From contig JBAYVZ010000001.1 in assembly GCA_041674285.1 (NCBI GenBank), forward strand, positions 10,167 through 74,166: DNA of 64,000 bases, in the 5' to 3' direction. Position numbers and translations under genes: made by a program. The stretch is from Minisyncoccota bacterium (lineage in GTDB: Bacteria > Patescibacteriota > Minisyncoccia > Phycocordibacterales > UBA9973). A model generated the notes under the pieces. That model searched no databases, had not been told where the DNA came from, and worked only from the letters and a program-made list of their open reading frames with translations. Below are positions 2,175 through 42,788 of this stretch, piece by piece. Numbering within the stretch: the first letter of the stretch is position 1; the number at the start of each line of letters is the position of its first letter.

Positions 2175-3509
2175 ATGAAATTTGGTAATAAAAATTTTTA
2201 TATTGGTTTTATAAAAAAAACATTTATAGTTTTCGCTATATTGTTTTTCAGTGTGTCTTTTGCTGATTTCTCAAGTTCTAGTTTCAATCTCGAGAATCCT
2301 CTGAGTGTCACAGAAGGTGGCCAGGCTACTTCCAGTAGTTTTAAGTACTTTGGGTCTACTGGGCAATTGATAGTGGGAGAGAGTAGTAGTACAAATTTCA
2401 AGCAAAATTCTGGATTCATGTATTTCCCATTTGCGACTTCGCCTGTACTGACAGCTACTGCAGGGGATACTACCGTATCGTTATCTTGGACTGCAGCTTC
2501 GGGGGTTTTTGCAAATGTCACTAGCTATGAATTGGGTAGTAGTACTTCTGCTGATTCTGGTTTTGTGTACGTGTCTGTCGGTACTAGTACTTCATCTACA
2601 AAGAGCTCACTTACAAACGGTACGACTTATTATTTCAAGGTTAGATCTTATGCTGCTGGGATACTAGTCAGTGAATCATCTGTAGTCTCATCTACTCCAG
2701 CATCTTCGGATAATGGTGGTTCTGGTGGGGGTGGCGGAGGAGGGGGTGGTGGAAGCAGTAGTGGTGGTACCTCGAATAATGTTAAATTCTCCGGCAGAGC
2801 TTATCCTCGCAGTACTGTGGTGCTACTCAAGGATGCCCAAGTTTTAACTTCGACCCTAGCAGGCAATGATGCCAACTTCACTATAAACATCAATAGCATG
2901 AATGCTGGTAATTATATTTTCTCTGTGTATTCCGAGGATGACAAGGGCAATAGATCTTCACTCCTTACTTTCCCAGTGTCTATTACTGCAGGTGCCAGTA
3001 CCGATATAGGAGGTATATTCATAGCACCGACTATCGCTACAGATAAATCAGAGGTAAAGCAGGGTGACAATATAACTTTCTTTGGTCAGTCTACCCCAAA
3101 TAGTGAGATCACGATTTCTATTCATTCAGAGCAGGAATTATTCGAAAAAACTAATTCAGACAAGGATGGTATATATCTCCGGATGGTAGATTCATCTCCT
3201 TTGGAGGTAGGTAGTCACTCTGCAAAATCAAAATCAGCGATAAATGGAGAGATTAGTTCCTATAGTAAGCCTATAGATTTTGCTGTCAGTGATAAAAATA
3301 TTGAAAATGATTTACTGAAGAAATGCCCTGCAAAAGGAGATCTGAATAATGACTGTAAGGTTAACTTGATTGATTTCTCTATAGCAGCTTTTTGGAATAA
3401 AAAAACACTAACTCAGAGTATTTCTGATAAAGAAAAATTAAAGTTGAACGGAGATGGAAAAATAAATCTGATCGACTTTAGTATCATGGCTTATTATTGG
3501 ACTGGATAA
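2175..3509 (+). CDS. Secreted FN3-domain protein with Gly-rich linker and C-terminal type-I dockerin
   Basis: N-terminal hydrophobic signal/anchor and FN3-like block (TVSLSWTAASG...TTYYFKVRSYAAG). GGSGGGGGGGGGGSSSGG linker. Two dockerin Ca-binding repeats GDLNNDCKVNLIDFSIAAFW and LNGDGKINLIDFSIMAYYW (DxNxDGxVNxxD pattern). Confidence 0.65.
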   Translation: MKFGNKNFYIGFIKKTFIVFAILFFSVSFADFSSSSFNLENPLSVTEGGQATSSSFKYFGSTGQLIVGESSSTNFKQNSGFMYFPFATSPVLTATAGDTTVSLSWTAASGVFANVTSYELGSSTSADSGFVYVSVGTSTSSTKSSLTNGTTYYFKVRSYAAGILVSESSVVSSTPASSDNGGSGGGGGGGGGGSSSGGTSNNVKFSGRAYPRSTVVLLKDAQVLTSTLAGNDANFTININSMNAGNYIFSVYSEDDKGNRSSLLTFPVSITAGASTDIGGIFIAPTIATDKSEVKQGDNITFFGQSTPNSEITISIHSEQELFEKTNSDKDGIYLRMVDSSPLEVGSHSAKSKSAINGEISSYSKPIDFAVSDKNIENDLLKKCPAKGDLNNDCKVNLIDFSIAAFWNKKTLTQSISDKEKLKLNGDGKINLIDFSIMAYYWTG

Positions 3510-3557
3510 TGTGTCGCGCTTTAAAGAATGATTGCGTGACGTGATTTCATTAAATCA

Positions 3558-4403
3558 ATGTATAAAAATTTTACAATTAAATTTATAATATTTTCTTTTT
3601 TACTATCTGTATTTACAAACAGTGTTTTTGCTGCAGATATAAGTATCAAATCTGACAGTAGTGATATAAAAATAGGTGATATCTATAAAGTGTCTATATT
3701 ACTCGATACAAAAAGTGAGTCTGTAAATACTATCGAAGGGGATGTGTCTTACGATAAAGATATGATGGATGTCGTATTCATAGATACATCAGCTTCTTTT
3801 GTAAATCTCTGGGTAGAAAAACCGTCCGTATCTGCTCCTGGGCGTATTCATTTTTCTGGCATGACTCCTGGGGGAGTCTCTGTGCCTGCTGGTGTTGTTT
3901 TTGATATGGTTTTCAAAGCAAAGAAGATAGGATCTTCTACTGTGTCTTTATCTAATATATCCTTGTATATAAACGATGGATTAGGGTCAAAAGCTCAGTC
4001 TAATTTTGATAATTTTACTGTTGTAGTGGGGGAGGGCGATTCTACTCGGGGTGTTTTTGATTTGTTCGATTCAGACAAGGTTTCCCCAGAGATTTTTACC
4101 ATAGAGAGAACTCGTGATGAATCTATCTTTGATGGAAAATATTTCATTGCTTTCAATGCGATAGACAAAGACTCTGGTATATCCAAGACCAGGTCCTGCG
4201 AATTCATGTCTTGTCGTGATGTGGTGAGTCCTACTCTCCTTTCAAATCAAACTCCATTTTATTTTATAAAAGTAATTGCTTTTGATATGAATGGCAATAC
4301 TACTTCTTCATTCTTAATCGCTGATATCGTTTATGTTGCCTTCTTTTCATTTATTATTTTTATTTTTGGTTTATTTTTATTCTATAAAAGTAAAAAGTTG
4401 TAG
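3558..4403 (+). CDS. Cohesin-like domain protein with signal peptide and C-terminal TM anchor
   Basis: Signal peptide, then a beta-sandwich-like region (IKIGDIYKVSILLD...IEGDVSYDKDMMDVVFID...FDMVFKAKKIGSSTVSLSN) resembling cohesin modules. C-terminal hydrophobic helix plus KSKKL stop-transfer. Confidence 0.45.
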   Translation: MYKNFTIKFIIFSFLLSVFTNSVFAADISIKSDSSDIKIGDIYKVSILLDTKSESVNTIEGDVSYDKDMMDVVFIDTSASFVNLWVEKPSVSAPGRIHFSGMTPGGVSVPAGVVFDMVFKAKKIGSSTVSLSNISLYINDGLGSKAQSNFDNFTVVVGEGDSTRGVFDLFDSDKVSPEIFTIERTRDESIFDGKYFIAFNAIDKDSGISKTRSCEFMSCRDVVSPTLLSNQTPFYFIKVIAFDMNGNTTSSFLIADIVYVAFFSFIIFIFGLFLFYKSKKL

Positions 4404-4435
4404 ATATTTATTTTTTAATAAGTTATAATAAATTT

Positions 4436-5950
4436 ATGTCTTTTAAAAATTTTTACAAAATAAATTTAAATAAAAAAATATTATTTTTATTTTTTATTTT
4501 TCTGTTTTCTTTTACTCAAAAAGTTTCTGCTGCAGAGTTAAACCTAATCCCATCTTTTTCTTCTTATGAAGTTGGGGATAATATTAAAGTCAGGGTTACA
4601 TTGTCTAGTTCGACTTCTGTGAATGCTGTGTCTGGAAATATAAAATTTTCTACAGACACTCTGACTATGACATCTGTTACCAAGGGGGGCTCAGTCGTTA
4701 GCTTGTGGGCAGTTGAACCTACATATTCAAATGCATCAGGTACTGTAAATTTTGAAGGTGTCATGCTCTCTGGATATACAGGTTCAGGTGGGACTGTATT
4801 GACTCTGAATTTCAAAGCTAAATCAGCGGGTACTGCATCAGCTAGCTTTTCTTCGTCTTCTGTTTTAGCTAGTGATGGAGAAGGTACAAATGTTTTGTCT
4901 AGATCCGGTAGTACGTCATTTAGGATTAATAAGCCGGCTGAAAAGAAAGTAGAAGAAAAACCAGCTGATAAAACTGATAAAAAAATAGAAACAAAGACTC
5001 TCTCTCCAAAAACTGAGACTACAGAGACTTCAAATACAAAAGTTGATTTAGTTTTGCCTACTATTCAAATACAAAAGATATCTGCAGATGATAGTATTGA
5101 TTCATTTGCTGTATTTAATGTGAACAGTGTGGGGAAGAAATTAAAATCACTATACAAGGTAGAAATCGATGGGGCACCTTATGCATGGGATAATCAGGAT
5201 GGTGGAGTATTTACTACACCTAAGTTGACAAAGGGGGATCACAGGTTGTCTATATCTATGGACACAGTTAACGGAGATATACTCTCAAGTAGTGTCGCTT
5301 TCTCTATCCTCAGTATCCCTGCACCTGTCATCACTGAATATTCTGAGAGTATAAATGAAAATAGTTATATAGTCATTAAAGGTAAGGCTGACCCGGATAC
5401 AGATGTTATATTGGTATTTGATTACAAATTATCAGACACTGGTGAATCTAAAAAATACGAAGCAGTAGCTCGATCAGATGAATATGGAAACTTCACTTAT
5501 TTGTCTGAAAAAGTTAAATCCGGATCTTATGATGTGTCAGCATATTACAAAGTAAAGAGTGGGTTTGATAGTGAAAAGAGTGCACCATTAAAATTGAATG
5601 TAAATTCAGAAAATAAAGTACTCCTATCAAAGGTTACAAATACTTTCTCTGTGGTTATATTGATTGTCGCACTCATTATATTGCTATTAATTGTTGCTAC
5701 TTGGGGGTGGTATAAGTTCCTAAATTACAAGGATAAGCACACAAAAAAGTTGTCCGACAGCAAGATAGTTATAGCAAAAAGTTTTGAGATTCTAGATAAT
5801 GATGTCGATAAACAGATCAAGATATTTAGAAAAATTAAATCTCTCGAGCCTTTGACCAAAGAAGAAAAAGCTTTCTTGAAAGAATTCAAGAGAGACATAC
5901 GGGCAGCAGAAAAAGTGATATCAGATGAAGTAAAGATTCCCAAGAAGTAA
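4436..5950 (+). CDS. Cohesin-like domain protein, membrane-anchored with charged cytoplasmic tail
   Basis: Signal peptide; cohesin-like pattern (NIKVRVTLSS...VSGNIKFSTDTLTMTS...GTVLTLNFKAKSAGTASASF). Second beta-rich domain, TM helix (VVILIVALIILLLIVATWGW), Lys/Glu-rich tail. Confidence 0.5.
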   Translation: MSFKNFYKINLNKKILFLFFIFLFSFTQKVSAAELNLIPSFSSYEVGDNIKVRVTLSSSTSVNAVSGNIKFSTDTLTMTSVTKGGSVVSLWAVEPTYSNASGTVNFEGVMLSGYTGSGGTVLTLNFKAKSAGTASASFSSSSVLASDGEGTNVLSRSGSTSFRINKPAEKKVEEKPADKTDKKIETKTLSPKTETTETSNTKVDLVLPTIQIQKISADDSIDSFAVFNVNSVGKKLKSLYKVEIDGAPYAWDNQDGGVFTTPKLTKGDHRLSISMDTVNGDILSSSVAFSILSIPAPVITEYSESINENSYIVIKGKADPDTDVILVFDYKLSDTGESKKYEAVARSDEYGNFTYLSEKVKSGSYDVSAYYKVKSGFDSEKSAPLKLNVNSENKVLLSKVTNTFSVVILIVALIILLLIVATWGWYKFLNYKDKHTKKLSDSKIVIAKSFEILDNDVDKQIKIFRKIKSLEPLTKEEKAFLKEFKRDIRAAEKVISDEVKIPKK

Positions 5951-6046
5951 AATATTTACAAGTTAAAATAAAAATGCCCTATTGGTTAAATAGGGTGTTT
6001 TTATTTGGTTTTTTTGTGTTTTTGCTGATATAATATGTACATATAG

Positions 6047-9000
6047 ATGAAAAATTTTGGACATAAAATAATTTCTTTGATTCTTTTGGTTGTACTACTG
6101 ATAACAAGTGGTTTTTTTGTTGATAATATAAAAAAAGCAAAAGCATCTAATTCAAAAACAGTTACAGTTACTTTTCGTACCACTCCAACTACTGCAACCG
6201 TTGCAAAAGCTCCACTGAAATATAATAAGGATTTTGCTTTTAGTTTTCAGATGGATGATGGTAGTGCGGACAACTACGAGAATGGTTTCAAATATATGTA
6301 TGGAGGTACTAGTTCATTATTAGAAGAAAGTTATGGTGGTAAATATTTTACAGATGGATCTGGACGATCTACTGCACTAGCTAGTAAGCCATTTCGTGGT
6401 GACTTTGTTTGGAATTCTCGAAACTATAGTTCAAGTTTTGTAGAGCTACACGCAGCCCTAAATACTCTTACTTGGACAAAACTCCTTGATGCGAATACTG
6501 CAGGATTTGACGTATTGAACCACAGTTGGTCTCATGCTGCTGTGACTACACTAGGGGATAATTATGTTTATGATTATCCTGCGCCACAAGGTGCTACTAC
6601 TCTGGAATCTGGTGGTTATGAATATGAACTTAGTCAAAACGAAGACGAGGTGGCTAGTCACGGGGTGACTATGGCACCACTTGCTATGGTTCCTCCGGCA
6701 GGAGATCATGGATATATAGATCCTGCTTTTTCTACTGGTTACAAGCTCGTAGCCAGTGAGAGTTCGTCTTTTACTTACTCAGGTGGGACGGTTGCTGTAG
6801 ATACGGGTGGTATGAATGTGACTTCGAGTGTAGATTTGGACCATCTTTTTGCTTATCGATATTTTTATGAAGATAGTAGATTTACCCCAAACACCGCTAC
6901 GGCTATCACTACACCCATAGACACACTTGCATCTCGTAGTCGTGGGTCAGATAAATACTGGGCTATTGGTTTTACTCATAGGACGAGTGTGGTCTCTGGT
7001 GGCCTATCAGAATCAAATTATGAATCATTGATGGACCATATTGCTAGTACTTATGGCCGTGATGGGGATGATTCTATCTGGATGGCTCCAGCCGAAGAGG
7101 TGTATGACTATTTATCCACAAAGCAAAATACAACAGTCTCTACAAACACAGTAGGGAATGTTATGACTATTACACTCGACACATCATCTGTACCAGCGTT
7201 GCGACGCGAGGCTCTATCTCTGGTTGTATCTTCTGATGCCGAGATTGAATCTATCGCATATGCTCCCGGAGAATTTACTGCTACTAGTTCAAATATAAAT
7301 ACTGGTCTGATTAATATGGATTGGGGTACTGTATATACAGCCAATGATTTTACCCGTGTAGAAACATTAGTATCCGCTGCTGAATCTAGTCGTGCGCAGT
7401 CTGACATCGATATCGCTACTACTTATGTCGCTATGTTGCCAGCAAGTGTTGAGAAAAATAATTTTACTAGTAGGTTAAATAATATTGTTGTTTTAGGTCA
7501 GCGATGGTTGATCAATCTGGGTATCAATAGTGCAGGCAAATTACAAGACACAGTAGTGGGTAGTGAGACAGAGAATCTTTGGTGGAATGAGATAAATTTA
7601 GTTTCCAATACTGGTTCAAATCAGACATCACCCATACTAGTAGACACTGCAAATGTAAATACTAGTCTTACTGTAGTTTTACCTCAATCTACTACTACAA
7701 ATTCTTGGGTAAAACCAGGAGCGGGTAGTGAGGGTCAGACTACTGTCACAGACGGTGATGGGGCTTATCCAAATGCTAAAATGCAAAAAGGTCTTTATAT
7801 CAGTAACGCAACAGAAACTTCACCTGTTGTTCAGATTCATAATCTTGACCCTGTAAAGAAATATAAGGTCACAATTTTTGGTTCTACAAAAAATTTAAAT
7901 AGCGGAAAAACTACGTCAAATATTGCAGTTCAGGGTGTATCTCAGGGTCCGTATCAGCATTATAATAATACAAGTAATACTTTAATATTTAGTTCCGTTT
8001 CTCCTACTGTTAGTGGGGTTATAGAGATTGTTATGACTCCTGTGAATCCAGCTTGGAGCGTGACTCCTATAAATGTCATCGATATCAGTGAGGTCACTCC
8101 TGCATTGCCAACTATAACTTTTAATTCTCAATCTCTACGCAGTCAGATTAGTGGGCTTGTTGATTACGGATATACTATTACTGATGACAATAGTGATCCT
8201 ATTTCCCTTATGAGCTATCAATACTCTGCCACCGGTGCATTTAATGGCGAGGAAGCGACTGCTACTCCAAAATCAAGCGACGGTCTTCATGATGGAATTT
8301 CTTCTTTGACTTCTTCTCCTGCGGGTGTTGCTCATGATTTCGTATGGGATGCTATTACTGATTTACTTGGACAAGAGGGAACTTTTTATCTAAGACTCCG
8401 ACCACAGAATCTATCCTCTGATGGGTCATATTCAATTGCTACTCCAGTCGCTCTCGATTTCAAGAACCCCGTACAGACTAGTATCGGCGCTACGACAACT
8501 TCATCTACTGCAAGTATCACTTGGACTACCCAAGAGATCGCGTATGGATTGGTGGAGTATGGTACTACGGATTCATATGGATCAAGTGTAGGATCCTTGT
8601 CATCTGGTACAGCGGTATTGAGTCATGATTTTGATTTGACTGGATTAGATGCTTGTACTACTTATCACTACCGTGTGTCTTCTCGAGATAGTGTGGGTAA
8701 CAATACCGTATCATCTGATCAGACGATGCATACAGCTGGATGCCCTGATCCTGTAGCTAGTCCTGTGGCTGGATTGTATAATGCGACTCAATCAGTGACA
8801 CTATCTGCTACTGGATCTTCTTCTATTCGCTATTCGACAACTAGTACCCCAGCTGATTGTTCTGCTGGTACTCTGTATAGTGGCGCGATATCTGTAGCAT
8901 CAGATACTACTATATATGTACGTGCTTGTGATATTTCAAACAATTCAACTACTGGTAGTTTCCTCTATACTATAGATTCCGAAGCCCCATCTACACCAGC

Positions 9001-10195
9001 TTCATCACCGTCGGATGGTACATACAACAGTACTCAGTCGGTCACACTATCAGCTGCAGGTTCTGATTCTATAAGATATTCTACATCGAGTACCCCAGCT
9101 GATTGTTCTGCTGGTACTCTATACAGTGGTGCTATCTCTGTGTCCTCTAATCAGACTATTTATGCTAGAGCATGTGATACCGCAGGTAATTCTTCTACGG
9201 CATCTTTTGCTTATGTTATAGATACTAGTGCCCCAGACACTGCGGTTGCTTCACCTAGTGCTGGTACATACAACAGCACTCAATCTGTGACCCTATCATC
9301 TTCTGGGTCAGATTCTATCCGCTATTCTACATCAGGCACACCATCTAACTGTTCTGCTGGTACTCTGTATAGTGGCGCGATATCTGTAGCATCAGATGCT
9401 ACTATATATGTACGTGCTTGTGACGGAGCAGGGAATGCCTCCACGACATCTTTTGCTTATGTGATAGACACTGAAGATCCTAGTATTCCCGTAGCGAGCC
9501 CCTCTGCTGGTACTCATGAGGGTACTCAATCAGTGACACTATCTGCTACTGGATCTTCTTCTATCCGCTATTCGACAACTAGTACTCCAGCTGATTGTTC
9601 TGCTGATACTCTATATGGTGGAGCGATAACTGTTGCTTCTGATACTACTTTATATGTGCTAGCTTGTGATGAGGCAGGGAATTCATCTACTGCATCTTTT
9701 GAATACGTAATAACAATAGATGATACTCCTCCAGCCCCTGTGAATGAATCCAGGAGATATGGTAGCTCATCTTCAAGCTCTTATTCATCTGCAAGTTCAA
9801 AAATATATTCACCTGTAATCGCTACCTCAAATGCTAGTGTTTTATCTGGGGTAGTTTCTAGCACGAATAGTCCAGATAATAAATATCCAATAGCTGTATC
9901 TATTAATACAGGTACTCCTAATGTTAAAAATAATATAGTTTTTTCTATTGAAAAATTACCAAATATTATTAAGATAAACAACTCAAATCCAAATATCAGA
10001 TCACTCCAAGAATTTTTAGTCGACTCATCGTCTGGACCCAAAGCTAAAGCTCTAGAGAAGCATGGTCTTACAAAGAATTTTGGATTACTCACAAAAGCCG
10101 CCCTTACTGAATGGCAAAAGGCGAATGGCCTAAAAGCTGATGGTATATTCGGACCAAAGACAAAAGCAAAAATAATTGAAATATTAAATAAATAA
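6047..10195 (+). CDS. Giant cell-surface protein with CE4/NodB-like polysaccharide deacetylase domain, FN3 domain, four tandem CHB_HEX_C-like Ig repeats and C-terminal PG_binding_1 domain
   Basis: Signal anchor; NodB-like motifs FQMDDGSAD and NHSWSHA. Four roughly 80-aa repeats (PVASPVAGLYNATQSVTLSATGSSSIRYSTTSTPADCSAGTLYSGAISVASDTTIYVRACD...). C-terminal LQEFLVDSSSGPKAKALEKHGLTKNFGLLTKAALTEWQKANGLKADGIFGPKTKAKI resembles the PG_binding_1 domain. Confidence 0.65.
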   Translation: MKNFGHKIISLILLVVLLITSGFFVDNIKKAKASNSKTVTVTFRTTPTTATVAKAPLKYNKDFAFSFQMDDGSADNYENGFKYMYGGTSSLLEESYGGKYFTDGSGRSTALASKPFRGDFVWNSRNYSSSFVELHAALNTLTWTKLLDANTAGFDVLNHSWSHAAVTTLGDNYVYDYPAPQGATTLESGGYEYELSQNEDEVASHGVTMAPLAMVPPAGDHGYIDPAFSTGYKLVASESSSFTYSGGTVAVDTGGMNVTSSVDLDHLFAYRYFYEDSRFTPNTATAITTPIDTLASRSRGSDKYWAIGFTHRTSVVSGGLSESNYESLMDHIASTYGRDGDDSIWMAPAEEVYDYLSTKQNTTVSTNTVGNVMTITLDTSSVPALRREALSLVVSSDAEIESIAYAPGEFTATSSNINTGLINMDWGTVYTANDFTRVETLVSAAESSRAQSDIDIATTYVAMLPASVEKNNFTSRLNNIVVLGQRWLINLGINSAGKLQDTVVGSETENLWWNEINLVSNTGSNQTSPILVDTANVNTSLTVVLPQSTTTNSWVKPGAGSEGQTTVTDGDGAYPNAKMQKGLYISNATETSPVVQIHNLDPVKKYKVTIFGSTKNLNSGKTTSNIAVQGVSQGPYQHYNNTSNTLIFSSVSPTVSGVIEIVMTPVNPAWSVTPINVIDISEVTPALPTITFNSQSLRSQISGLVDYGYTITDDNSDPISLMSYQYSATGAFNGEEATATPKSSDGLHDGISSLTSSPAGVAHDFVWDAITDLLGQEGTFYLRLRPQNLSSDGSYSIATPVALDFKNPVQTSIGATTTSSTASITWTTQEIAYGLVEYGTTDSYGSSVGSLSSGTAVLSHDFDLTGLDACTTYHYRVSSRDSVGNNTVSSDQTMHTAGCPDPVASPVAGLYNATQSVTLSATGSSSIRYSTTSTPADCSAGTLYSGAISVASDTTIYVRACDISNNSTTGSFLYTIDSEAPSTPASSPSDGTYNSTQSVTLSAAGSDSIRYSTSSTPADCSAGTLYSGAISVSSNQTIYARACDTAGNSSTASFAYVIDTSAPDTAVASPSAGTYNSTQSVTLSSSGSDSIRYSTSGTPSNCSAGTLYSGAISVASDATIYVRACDGAGNASTTSFAYVIDTEDPSIPVASPSAGTHEGTQSVTLSATGSSSIRYSTTSTPADCSADTLYGGAITVASDTTLYVLACDEAGNSSTASFEYVITIDDTPPAPVNESRRYGSSSSSSYSSASSKIYSPVIATSNASVLSGVVSSTNSPDNKYPIAVSINTGTPNVKNNIVFSIEKLPNIIKINNSNPNIRSLQEFLVDSSSGPKAKALEKHGLTKNFGLLTKAALTEWQKANGLKADGIFGPKTKAKIIEILNK
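8750..9700 (+). repeat. Four tandem roughly 240-bp intragenic repeats, near-identical at nucleotide level
   Basis: Blocks such as ctgtatagtggcgcgatatctgtagcatcagat(a/g)ctactatatatgtacgtgcttgtga recur at about 8870, 9110, 9360 and 9600. Confidence 0.7.
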
Positions 10196-10242: not shown

Positions 10243-11862
10243 ATGAAAAAATATTTGGTGTCATTGTTTTCTTTTTTATTTTTAATTTTATTTGCATCAA
10301 ATGTGTATGCTTCAATCACTCCTATTATTACTTTGAGTGATACTAGCTTGGTGGCAGGCGAGACTGCTACTGTGACTTTTACTTTCACAGAAAATCCACT
10401 TTCTTTTACTGCTGATGATGTCACTGCTTCAAAGGGCATAATTTCTGATTTTACTGTCACGGGAGATCCTCTAGTTTATATTGCGACTTTTACCCCCACT
10501 TCTGAGATAATCGATGCATCAAATGTTATAACAATTGCATCAAAAGATACTATAAAAAAGTTTACAGGTCTACCTAGTTATTCTCGCACAGACCTTGCTT
10601 TTGATGGTACGAATATGTGGGTTACTTCTTATGTTGCAGAGAATAGTGTATCAAAGGTGGCTCCGGATGGTACTGTTACTACCTATACTGGTACAGGTAG
10701 TTGGCCAAAGGGGATTGAATTTGACGGTGTTAATATGTGGACTGCAAACTATCTTAGCCACAATGTATCCAAGATAACCCCAAGTGGTACCATCACAAAT
10801 TTTTCTGTAGCCGGTAATCCAGATGGTATAGCATTTGATGGCACAAATATGTGGACTGCAAACTATACTGGACATAGTGCTTCCAAGATTGAACCTAATG
10901 GCTCTGTTACTACTTATTCAGGTCAGGCAGGTAGTTACCCGTGGGATATTGCATTTGATGGTACAAATATGTGGACTGTAAACTATTATGGTGGCACCGT
11001 GACAAAATTCACACCCGAAGGTGTGGCTACTACATATAGTGGTATAGGTGACTGGGCTACTGGAATTGCATTTGACGGTACAAATATGTGGACTGTTAGT
11101 AATTATGAAAATCAAGTAGCAAAGATTGATCCCTCTGGTAATGTCACTACTTATTCTACTGGGGGTGGACTAGGTGCTGGTGGTTACGGATTGGTATTTG
11201 CAAATGATTATATCTGGGTTGCTGATAATGTTTCTAGTAGATTAATAAAGATGAATACTAGTGGTGTGATAGAGAAGACTTATTCTCTCGGTGTTTCTCC
11301 TTATAATGTCATCTCTGTAGATTCGGAGATCTGGATGACTTATAGTAGTGGTGGTATTGCTCGACTAGGTAGTAGTACTTCTGCTAATTCAGAAAATTAT
11401 GAAATAAATACAAGAACATACACATCATCATCTAGTTCTTCTTCTACCCACTACGGATGCAAGGATGAGTCAGCTATAAACTATGAATACTTTGCCGCGA
11501 GTGACCCGTCTCTGTGTAAATATGGAGAAAACCCCATTGTCGTAGCCACCAGCTCTCCTTCGGTATCTATGAATTCAAAAGAATTAATTTTGACTGTTAC
11601 TAGCGTATTTGAAAATAATATTTCTAAAATTAAAAATATTTTAAAATTTGGTTCGAATAATTCAGAAGTTGAGATGCTCCAGCAATTTTTAATTGATAAA
11701 AACATTGGTCCTGCGTCTGCATCTTTAAAAGATCACGGTACTACTTATGAATTTGGCCCTCTGACAAAATCTGCATTAGCTGAATGGCAAAAGGCGAGTG
11801 ATTTAAAGGCTGATGGTATTCTAGGTCCTCTGACAAAAGCTAAAATGCTGGGATCTCTATAA
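10243..11862 (+). CDS. Secreted Big-like plus 7-bladed beta-propeller (Vgb-lyase/NHL-like repeat) protein with C-terminal PG_binding_1 domain
   Basis: Signal peptide; seven repeats of the form FDGTNMWTANY...SKI.P.G.VTTY. C-terminal MLQQFLIDKNIGPASASLKDHGTTYEFGPLTKSALAEWQKASDLKADGILGPLTKAKM matches the PG_binding_1 domain of the preceding gene. Confidence 0.6.
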   Translation: MKKYLVSLFSFLFLILFASNVYASITPIITLSDTSLVAGETATVTFTFTENPLSFTADDVTASKGIISDFTVTGDPLVYIATFTPTSEIIDASNVITIASKDTIKKFTGLPSYSRTDLAFDGTNMWVTSYVAENSVSKVAPDGTVTTYTGTGSWPKGIEFDGVNMWTANYLSHNVSKITPSGTITNFSVAGNPDGIAFDGTNMWTANYTGHSASKIEPNGSVTTYSGQAGSYPWDIAFDGTNMWTVNYYGGTVTKFTPEGVATTYSGIGDWATGIAFDGTNMWTVSNYENQVAKIDPSGNVTTYSTGGGLGAGGYGLVFANDYIWVADNVSSRLIKMNTSGVIEKTYSLGVSPYNVISVDSEIWMTYSSGGIARLGSSTSANSENYEINTRTYTSSSSSSSTHYGCKDESAINYEYFAASDPSLCKYGENPIVVATSSPSVSMNSKELILTVTSVFENNISKIKNILKFGSNNSEVEMLQQFLIDKNIGPASASLKDHGTTYEFGPLTKSALAEWQKASDLKADGILGPLTKAKMLGSL

Positions 11863-41963: not shown

Positions 41964-42788
41964 ATGGAAATAAAACAAAAGATTTTGAAAGAGCCTGTGC
42001 TTATCTCTGGTAAGGATTACTGGGGAAGGTCAGCATGGATTAAATTTTCTCCGTCCGTTCGTTCTGGGTGGTGGTGGAAAACCAAAGATGGGGTGATTCC
42101 TATTAATCACAAAATTGCAGAAAAAAGACGCGGGCAAATATCTCTTTGTTCGGGCTCAGAATCTATCGCAGTATGGGAGCATATAGGTGTTTTGAGATTT
42201 TTAGGATTTGATTGTGTTGAAGTAGAATCATCGCCTTGGGCTCCGTATGATGGATCCGCGCTTATTTACTACGAACACTTGGAGGGTAAATTTGCTGTTA
42301 GTGGCAGCAATATCCCCTGGGTCAGGATAACCGAAGATGTAAAGAGTGCGTATGATCCAAATAAGAGAGATGGTTATGTGAAGATCAGTCCTGTATTGTC
42401 TGATGGAAATGAAGTTGCTGATTTATGCTTGAGTGTTGAGGCAGGATGGTCTCCTCTCCCGAGCATAAATAGAACTGTGTTTGCTTCTGATCAGGATTAT
42501 CTATTAAGTATCTTGGGTGTAAAAGCCCAGGGCTATCCTCATTATCTTTATAATGTTGCAAAAGTTGCATCAAAACTTGGCTACCCTCATTTCAAGGAGC
42601 TAACATGGTTGGAAGATCATGGGCCAGAAAAAACCGCTGAACTATTTTTTAGCCATCGTGTTCTGGATTTGTTGGGATGCATGAGTTTGTGTCACCATGA
42701 ATACTTGCCTGTTGGTCATGTCGAGTCTCGTTTTGCTGGTCACGAAGTAGACCTCAGCGCAGTAAAAAAGTGTTTTGTATATTTATAA
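41964..42788 (+). CDS. LpxC-family (UDP-3-O-acyl-GlcNAc deacetylase-like) zinc deacetylase homologue
   Basis: VWEHIGVLRFLGFDCVEVESSPWAPYDGSALIY parallels the LpxC motif TVEHL.AL.G.GIDN..IE....E.PImDGSA. C-terminal HRVLDLLGCMSL parallels the LpxC HxxxD zinc motif (HKxLDxxGDL). Confidence 0.55.
   Translation: MEIKQKILKEPVLISGKDYWGRSAWIKFSPSVRSGWWWKTKDGVIPINHKIAEKRRGQISLCSGSESIAVWEHIGVLRFLGFDCVEVESSPWAPYDGSALIYYEHLEGKFAVSGSNIPWVRITEDVKSAYDPNKRDGYVKISPVLSDGNEVADLCLSVEAGWSPLPSINRTVFASDQDYLLSILGVKAQGYPHYLYNVAKVASKLGYPHFKELTWLEDHGPEKTAELFFSHRVLDLLGCMSLCHHEYLPVGHVESRFAGHEVDLSAVKKCFVYL

Follow-up and report, generated by a model that had tools for sequence, protein, structure and literature searches.

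The stretch of DNA analyzed here, hereafter the window, comprises 64,000 nucleotides (nt) of a Minisyncoccota bacterium genome (contig JBAYVZ010000001.1), and near its start lies a cassette of three genes encoding a secreted stalk protein that ends in a dockerin and two predicted membrane-anchored proteins with one cohesin each. The coordinates within the window, strand and nature of these genes, and of a hairpin that follows them, are listed below (lengths in amino acids, aa; evidence from the open reading frame (ORF) listing, Pfam, paralogy, hydropathy, AlphaFold2 (AF2) models, Foldseek or a consensus scan in brackets):

2175-3509, + strand: gene 1, 444-aa secreted stalk protein with a C-terminal dockerin (ORF listing, Pfam, AF2)
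3558-4403, + strand: gene 2, 281-aa single-cohesin protein, membrane-anchored (ORF listing, paralogy, AF2, Foldseek)
4436-5950, + strand: gene 3, 504-aa single-cohesin protein, membrane-anchored, with a cytoplasmic tail (ORF listing, Pfam, hydropathy)
5966-6016, + strand: terminator-like hairpin with a T-run, 16 nt past the gene 3 stop (consensus scan)

Spacers in the window are 48 nt between genes 1 and 2 and 32 nt between genes 2 and 3, and the first two genes share a reading frame in which read-through translation meets three stops. Terminator-like sites are no commoner in this region than in shuffled sequences, which makes the hairpin at 5966-6016 suggestive at most; it is the probable end of a predicted gene 1-2-3 transcription unit. 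Records identical to genes 1 and 2 derive from a metagenome-assembled genome (MAG) of Candidatus Paceibacterota, which confirms the context resembling the Candidate Phyla Radiation (CPR) proposed in the original prediction, itself made from the sequence alone. NCBI already names these identical proteins ‘dockerin type I repeat-containing protein’ and ‘cohesin domain-containing protein’. The NCBI model of gene 1 (P0037, 418 aa) begins 26 codons after the ATG used here and by ENA (window 2175-2252), and thereby loses the signal peptide, which aligns across the family. The domain annotation is thus public already, and it is the strict synteny of an operon shared by many Patescibacteria, with anchoring and dockerin features of its own, that appears to be undescribed; the accessible full-text literature holds no description of it, with passing mentions of dockerin or cohesin in connection with CPR only, and an earlier description elsewhere is possible.

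The cassette is both widespread and near-invariant in its order. At least 543 stretches in GTDB species-representative genomes match the gene 1 family alignment, 1,956 of the 8,000 candidate proteins scored are relatives of gene 1 at E ≤ 1e-3, and an exhaustive search yielded 606 cluster representatives at E ≤ 1e-30. The best 120 relatives are 48-73% identical to gene 1 and mostly of similar length, and the taxa named in the record titles include Nomura-, Kaiser-, Zambryski-, Vogel-, Magasanik- and Uhrbacteria, Minisyncoccia and Paceibacterota (several third-party annotation (TPA) titles, e.g., ‘uncultured Gammaproteobacteria’, look like placeholders). Synteny was counted with three family hidden Markov models (HMMs) run on the ORFs of 80 loci, 73 of which have at least 2.5 kb downstream of gene 1. 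A gene 2-like gene follows on the same strand in 72 of these 73 loci, and both a gene 2-like and a gene 3-like gene do so in 71, the two loci without the full trio still having variant cohesin genes. The suggestion that the dockerin gene and both cohesin genes form one operon is well supported by this recurrent order. Median gaps in the related loci are 5 bp and then -36 bp, and about 25 loci carry a third cohesin paralogue (~430 aa, above the Pfam threshold). In 13 loci, the dockerin gene is separated from the cohesin gene that follows it by a GIY-YIG nuclease ORF of ~90 aa (e.g., L009:9472-9741), which accounts for an occasional ~400-bp gap there and resembles a small mobile or homing element directed at the operon. 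One MAG has two whole gene 1-2-3 cassettes (L019 and L020; CAYZGX010000008.1 and CAYZGX010000018.1), either because the cassette is truly duplicated or because strains were mixed in the bin.

Hydropathy places an N-terminal hydrophobic signal segment in each of the three proteins. Gene 1 is then organized as follows:

aa 1-30: signal peptide
aa 31-87: conserved N-terminal module (N-module; aa 27-80 in the AF2 model)
aa 88-176: FN3 domain
aa 177-199: Gly-rich linker
aa 200-283: Ig-like domain
aa 284-375: Ig-like domain
aa 384-444 (nt 3324-3506, + strand): dockerin module (Pfam, family profile, AF2)
aa 389-400 (nt 3339-3374, + strand): Ca-loop 1, DLNNDCKVNLID (dockerin-loop pattern)
aa 423-434 (nt 3441-3476, + strand): Ca-loop 2, KLNGDGKINLID (dockerin-loop pattern)

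Pfam places Dockerin_1 at aa 387-439 with 29.2 bits (cut-off 22.9, E 1.1e-6), a search against this profile (PF00404) having been proposed beforehand as a check; orthologue dockerins score up to 36 bits, and the gene 1 family profile matches the solved dockerins 2y3n_B (7e-5), 5nrm_B and 1daq. Elsewhere in the protein, Big_6 is above and fn3 just below the Pfam cut-off. The AF2 model (mean predicted local distance difference test score, pLDDT, 83.9) is a bead string in which the dockerin forms three helices (aa 398-407, 414-423 and 432-443) at a pLDDT >90, and PDB matches to this model in Foldseek are tandem FN3/Ig proteins, with zero enzymes among them.

Each dockerin repeat consists of a 12-residue Ca loop and a helix (DLNNDCKVNLIDFSIAAFW and KLNGDGKINLIDFSIMAYYW), so that the duplicated segment of ~22 residues characteristic of dockerins is present. 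The helix begins with NL(I/V)DFSI(A/M)A in both repeats, and this internal symmetry recalls the one known from dual-binding type I dockerins. The repeats had been described at the outset as two canonical type I repeats: the motifs quoted and the dockerin score hold, but the repeats are not fully canonical, since loop 1 has a Cys at position 6 and loop 2 a Lys at Ca-ligand position 1. Across 71 orthologues, the loop-1 ligands are nearly invariant (D1 in 70/71, N3 in 71/71, D5 in 71/71, N9 in 69/71 and D12 in 71/71), and positions 3, 5, 9 and 12 of loop 2 are conserved. Cysteines around loop 1 are strictly paired, one just before the loop and one inside it, in 59 of the 71 orthologues; the remaining 12 lack any such Cys, and none has a single one. 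As these pairs occupy six alternative combinations of positions (384+394, n = 37; 385+392, n = 8; 388+396, n = 7; and others), the strict pairing of covarying positions points to a disulfide staple, putatively formed by Cys384 and Cys394 in gene 1. To our knowledge, such a paired-Cys staple is unfamiliar from cellulosomal dockerins.

This dockerin also appears to stand alone. A strict dockerin-loop pattern applied to all six frames of the window matched only the gene 1 site, and a dockerin-only HMM, run on every ORF of 70 aa or more from the window and 85 loci, matched only gene 1 orthologues; each readable stretch, 64 kb long for this genome and ~17 kb for each relative, thus has one dockerin. 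An HMM of the N-module likewise found no carriers besides gene 1 orthologues in the window and loci. In some lineages recovered by the exhaustive search, gene 1 is reduced to the Gly linker, two Ig-like domains and the dockerin, with another head or none: the head is Cys-rich in P0190, almost absent in P0207, and an N-module without FN3 in P0182. Directly downstream of the Cys-rich-head gene 1 of P0190 lie gene 2-like and gene 3-like genes. Heads are thus swapped while the trio persists, which leaves Ig-Ig-dockerin plus two membrane cohesins as the constant core.

The two partner proteins are built on a common plan, each with a signal peptide, an N-terminal cohesin, an Ig-like part and a C-terminal transmembrane helix:

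Gene 2, aa 1-25: signal peptide
Gene 2, aa about 25-160 (nt 3630-4037): cohesin
Gene 2, aa about 175-254 (nt 4080-4319): Ig-like domain
Gene 2, aa about 256-280 (nt 4323-4397): transmembrane helix within a hydrophobic segment at aa ~248-280, followed by a 1-residue C-terminus
Gene 3, aa 1-33: signal peptide
Gene 3, aa about 33-165 (nt 4532-4930): cohesin, followed by a K/E/T-rich linker
Gene 3, aa about 206-393 (nt 5051-5614): Ig-like region
Gene 3, aa about 394-430 (nt 5615-5725): transmembrane segment
Gene 3, aa 431-504 (nt 5726-5947, + strand): cytoplasmic tail of 74 residues (hydropathy)

For gene 3, Pfam Cohesin is matched directly at aa 39-153 (35 bits, cut-off 24.1, E 1.9e-8), and its homologues contain Cohesin and Big_13. 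Searches of PDB sequences with gene 3, both as a single sequence and as a family profile, found no cohesin; its assignment is carried by Pfam and by paralogy to gene 2. Gene 2 of the window in turn matches nothing in Pfam or NCBIfam, and 15 of the 77 members of its family individually match Pfam Cohesin (best E 2.4e-7). Its aa 20-122 nonetheless align to aa 27-129 of gene 3 at 32% identity (E 3e-12), and hhalign relates the two families with a probability of 100% (E 4e-45) over 244 columns spanning the cohesin and the second Ig-like domain. The AF2 model of gene 2, built from an input alignment of 37 rows of database proteins, has a mean pLDDT of 90.4 and beta-strands across aa 25-158, and the top 50 Foldseek matches to it in the PDB are all cohesin modules. 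Type I cohesins fit this model best (TM-score 0.74-0.78, root-mean-square deviation (rmsd) 2.3-3.0 Å; e.g., 6kgc_A with 0.77 and 2.4 Å) and type II cohesins worse (about 0.5-0.56), while the lowest Foldseek E (1.7e-11) belongs to 2w1n, a cohesin + FN3 double module of Clostridium perfringens. On modelling and paralogy, then, gene 2 is a cohesin protein despite the absence of a profile match.

The two cohesins further share residues at the start of beta-3 (N), in beta-5 (W, P) and beta-6 (G), and an N/S-D-G-x-G-T motif in the loop after beta-8; these strands form the dockerin-binding face in solved type I cohesin complexes. Much of what the original prediction said of these two proteins has stood up: their domains were called cohesin-like, and the cohesin profile (PF00963) is matched directly by gene 3 and in part by the gene 2 family, while the gene 2 model superposes on the nine-stranded, flattened beta-sandwich of solved cohesins, so that the refutation named beforehand, a failure of these regions to match cohesin profiles or structures, did not materialize; signal peptides and C-terminal membrane anchors are seen in both by hydropathy, and for gene 2 in the AF2 model as well. 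Its description of two anchored cohesin scaffolds holds for the anchored cohesins but not for the word scaffold, as each protein has a single cohesin.

Segment by segment, sequence conservation (mean pairwise identity across the 71 syntenic triplets) is highest within gene 1 for the dockerin (64%, against 54-56% for the stalk domains and 45% for the N-module), and within gene 3 for the cohesin (46%, against 22-28% for the remainder). That conservation peaks on the dockerin and on the gene 3 cohesin is taken as support for these being the presumed interface. Gene 1 as a whole is unusually conserved for a surface protein, with 45-65% identity between the orthologues compared.

Taken together, we consider it reasonably probable that genes 1-3 encode a dedicated, non-cellulosomal docking system of the cohesin-dockerin type, located at the outer face of this Paceibacterota (CPR) bacterium's cytoplasmic membrane, with the cohesins and the dockerin carried on separate, non-catalytic proteins. 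In the mechanism that we propose, all three proteins would be exported via Sec, with genes 2 and 3 then held in the membrane by their single C-terminal helix, so as to present a type I-like cohesin at the far, N-terminal end of each ectodomain, and with gene 3 extending into the cytoplasm by its 74-residue tail. Gene 1 would be freed once its signal peptide is cleaved, and captured by one or both cohesins via its Ca-binding, presumably disulfide-stapled C-terminal dockerin. Capture at the dockerin end would let the Ig-Ig-(Gly linker)-FN3 stalk and the N-module project from the cell, with two or three paralogous single-cohesin membrane proteins per stalk protein. We infer the cohesin-dockerin contact itself, as well as the choice of partner (one cohesin or both), a dependence on Ca and a role in adhesion or envelope architecture. 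The complex is probably a constitutive envelope or surface-display structure of the lineage, working with a giant FN3-repeat protein encoded upstream (see below): a conserved gene 1 with an exchangeable head favors a structure that binds the cell's own components over a host-specific adhesin.

Several observations weigh against this interpretation. In gene 2, the cohesin is less conserved (32%) than the second domain (45%), and this protein may therefore not be a dockerin receptor. Position 1 of loop 2, a Lys in the window, is Asp in 15 of the 71 orthologues and another residue in 56, so that the second Ca site may be degenerate. When dockerin divergence was compared with that of either cohesin (gene 2 or gene 3) in a mirror-tree analysis controlled for the gene 1 stalk, the signal was weak and non-specific (partial r 0.04-0.23). 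The N-module, for all its conservation, is modeled at low confidence (pLDDT <50), and one close relative (L001) has a gene 3 homologue without genes 1 and 2 adjoining it. In this same locus, the 1,382-aa protein that follows gene 3 in the window (gene 4) comes after the gene 3 homologue although genes 1 and 2 are not adjacent.

The surroundings of the cassette provide further context, and the flanking features in the window are:

3-1337, + strand: C-terminal 444 aa of a giant secreted protein with a Peptidase_S74 domain, the ORF being cut by the window start
1383-2087, + strand: IS200/Y1-transposase-like (RAYT-like) gene, 234 aa (Pfam Y1_Tnp, 18.3 bits, below the cut-off)
6047-10195: gene 4, a 1,382-aa secreted protein with a weak polysaccharide-deacetylase match, four CHB_HEX_C_1 stretches, FN3 and a C-terminal PG_binding_1
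10243-11862: downstream secreted protein, 539 aa, with Big_12, a Vgb_lyase-type propeller and a C-terminal PG_binding_1

A longer copy of the contig (L086, 1-7780) reveals that the truncated ORF at 3-1337 belongs to a protein of 2,962 aa, which includes a Peptidase_S74 intramolecular chaperone domain, as in trimeric phage tail fibers and endosialidases, and has a series of (T/E)PEV repeats at its C-terminus. Another entry of that length, P0294 (2,962 aa), had looked like this genome's giant protein and was rejected. In 47 of 57 related loci, gene 1 is preceded by a large, fast-evolving ORF (600 aa or more) on the same strand; these giant proteins resemble one another in patches only, and elsewhere there are giants with 20-50 repeats resembling the FN3 of gene 1. 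A second upstream family, an N-terminally anchored transmembrane protein of ~140 aa, is found in 50 of 76 loci, and the window has the Y1-like gene at the position where most related loci have this protein. Near-identical GC-rich palindromes bracket the Y1-like gene (1341-1369 and 2056-2082), which itself contains a third copy (1652-1670); as the palindrome is absent from the rest of the window, the layout is REP/RAYT-like.

The 20 other large ORFs scanned in the window are ordinary chromosomal genes, mostly for translation and the cell envelope (among them leucyl-tRNA synthetase and other aminoacyl-tRNA synthetases, MurJ, three Mur ligases, a penicillin-binding protein, LepA, a release factor and ATP synthase subunit a), and neither a glycoside hydrolase nor another cohesin or dockerin is among them. 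One ORF (41964-42788, 274 aa) matches LpxC marginally and in part (27.8 bits, cut-off 27, covering the last 50 profile positions only); this similarity, odd for bacteria believed to have no outer membrane, is probably remote or due to chance. On both flanks of the locus in the relative with the Cys-rich gene 1 head (L088, 1-157 and 12947-13059) lie genes for pseudopilin-like surface proteins, in which prepilin N-methylation motifs are fused to Laminin_G_3 or pentaxin lectin domains.

The alternative that survives best, though still an unlikely one, is that the modules are homologous to cohesins and dockerins but do not bind each other: the trio would cooperate in the envelope with the dockerin as a Ca-dependent stabilizer or a binder of wall or glycan, and the cohesins would bind the giant protein, the ~140-aa transmembrane protein or peptidoglycan. 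The weak mirror-tree signal, the non-canonical loop 2 and the poorly conserved gene 2 cohesin all fit such a scenario, as does the co-occurrence upstream of two families that could be the real partners. These families are less constant (50/76 and 47/57) than the trio itself (71/73), however, and conservation is highest exactly where a cohesin-dockerin contact would lie, on the dockerin and the gene 3 cohesin. We also know of no established ligand of cohesin modules except dockerins.

Somewhat harder to credit is the idea that gene 1 is mainly an adaptor, whose N-module and FN3 hold the neighboring giant FN3-repeat fiber (a trimeric, S74-chaperone-matured, tail-fiber-like adhesin), the trio being the membrane socket of a host-attachment fiber. 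Its appeal comes from the large same-strand ORF just upstream in most loci (2,962 aa here), from the Peptidase_S74 chaperone of trimeric fibers in some of these giants and the gene 1-like FN3 repeats of others, and from an N-module that is strongly conserved yet predicted to be disordered alone, as expected if it folds on a partner. It is compatible with the docking system proposed above, and goes beyond the evidence: other lineages have a different head, or none, in place of the N-module and FN3 while retaining the Ig-Ig-dockerin core and the two cohesins, and the giant proteins are just patchily similar to one another. More speculative again, and doubtful in our view, is an extension in which the trio would be the conserved transmembrane socket of a surface organelle, possibly widespread in Paceibacteria and related CPR classes, with the internally symmetric, disulfide-stapled dockerin bridging the gene 2 and gene 3 cohesins simultaneously and so coupling the FN3/Ig stalk and the giant fiber to the gene 3 tail, as an attachment or contact-sensing device of episymbiosis.

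Finally, a (mini-)cellulosome or other polysaccharide-degrading complex with dockerin-bearing glycoside hydrolases encoded elsewhere in the genome is very improbable: cohesin and dockerin are the defining modules of the cellulosome, expressed CPR genes of this kind have been read in this way (Bell et al. 2022, PMC9123182), and gene 4 combines weak polysaccharide-deacetylase and chitobiase C-terminal domains, but the sole dockerin found in the window and 85 neighborhoods is that of the non-catalytic gene 1, neither gene 2, gene 3 nor the extra paralogue has more than a single cohesin or any carbohydrate-binding module, no glycoside hydrolase lies within the 64-kb window, gene 4 has no dockerin and adjoins the cassette in a few close relatives only, and a strict 1:1:1 synteny fits a dedicated complex rather than an enzyme-recruiting scaffold. 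Of the hallmarks of a cellulosome, catalytic dockerin subunits, a multi-cohesin scaffoldin and S-layer homology (SLH) or sortase attachment are all missing here; Pfam lists no SLH domain in genes 1-3 at E ≤ 1, the anchor being the C-terminal transmembrane helix. Without a dockerin-bearing enzyme, a multi-cohesin protein or a glycoside hydrolase in the window, the cassette is not a cellulosome, as the original prediction had also judged.

The docking system that we propose matters beyond this one genome. CPR bacteria, or Patescibacteria, make up a large share of bacterial diversity and are thought to live attached to other cells, but their surface machinery is barely known beyond a few cultivated Saccharibacteria. 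An easily recognized cassette that recurs in many named candidate phyla is thus a candidate core component of their envelope, and since its parts can be expressed as small soluble domains, the binding hypothesis is open to an in vitro test that bypasses cultivation. Cohesin and dockerin matches in CPR genomes are now read as cellulose degradation (PMC9123182), a reading which the architecture of the cassette contradicts. Compared to the searchable cellulosome literature, three features are new, namely anchoring by a membrane helix, the paired-Cys staple of the dockerin, and two or three cohesin paralogues per dockerin, and these may serve engineered surface display. A 2025 review of cellulosomes (PMC12484212) uses ‘disulfide’ solely for engineered cohesin-dockerin or display constructs, and ‘transmembrane’ solely in the title of a cited work on RsgI signaling.

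Among CPR bacteria themselves, cohesin and dockerin genes are expressed in a Microgenomates bacterium, where they were interpreted as a cellulosome (Bell et al. 2022, PMC9123182). The Saccharibacterium Southlakia epibionticum has an essential dockerin-domain envelope protein, SEML1_0315 (Wang et al. 2023, PMC10633639), which we considered and rejected as an orthologue of gene 1; its lone 2,784-nt gene (927 aa) is flanked by a hydrolase gene and a tRNA and lacks cohesin neighbors (PMC10633639 supplement).

Among characterized systems, OlpA and OlpC of Clostridium thermocellum and ScaE of Ruminococcus flavefaciens, both cellulolytic Firmicutes, resemble the cassette in having one cohesin per cell-fixed anchor protein and in capturing a secreted dockerin protein at the surface (a capture that is predicted here), and the OlpC cohesin (4dh2) fits the gene 2 model with a TM-score of 0.71-0.74. 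ScaE holds CttA, a dockerin-bearing adhesin, and thus displays a non-enzymatic protein. Unlike genes 2 and 3, which are predicted to rely on a C-terminal transmembrane helix, with a cytoplasmic tail in gene 3, these anchors are attached to a thick wall through SLH domains or sortase. They also belong to enzyme-recruiting cellulosomes with dozens of dockerins, whereas here one dockerin gene and two or three cohesin paralogues form a fixed operon in a non-cellulolytic CPR lineage.

Outside cellulosomes, cohesin-dockerin pairs were reportedly surveyed by Peer et al. in 2009 in FEMS Microbiol Lett. The pair of Archaeoglobus fulgidus is alike in combining a cohesin and a dockerin without a cellulosome, and its cohesin (2xdh) fits the gene 2 model with a TM-score of 0.78 and an rmsd of 2.7 Å; the two modules bind each other and have served to display proteins on surfaces (PMC9705933, PMC12484212). 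Genes of this type are scattered and lineage-sporadic, in contrast to the syntenic operon (71/73 loci), paralogous membrane cohesins and conserved Ig-Ig-dockerin stalk described here. The modules of the C. perfringens GH84 and GH33 toxin-complex enzymes (2w1n, 2jh2, 2vo8) are non-cellulosomal as well, and share with genes 2 and 3 the order of a cohesin followed by an Ig/FN3 domain, but they sit on large secreted glycoside hydrolases and join enzyme to enzyme, whereas no catalytic domain is present here and the cohesins are membrane proteins. The amylosome of Ruminococcus bromii (PMC4611034) likewise illustrates the reuse of the cohesin-dockerin principle beyond cellulose, although it assembles dockerin-bearing amylases and the trio assembles no enzymes. 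Overall, the systems closest to the cassette in logic are OlpC/OlpA and ScaE-CttA, and those closest in phylogenetic setting are the A. fulgidus and C. perfringens pairs.

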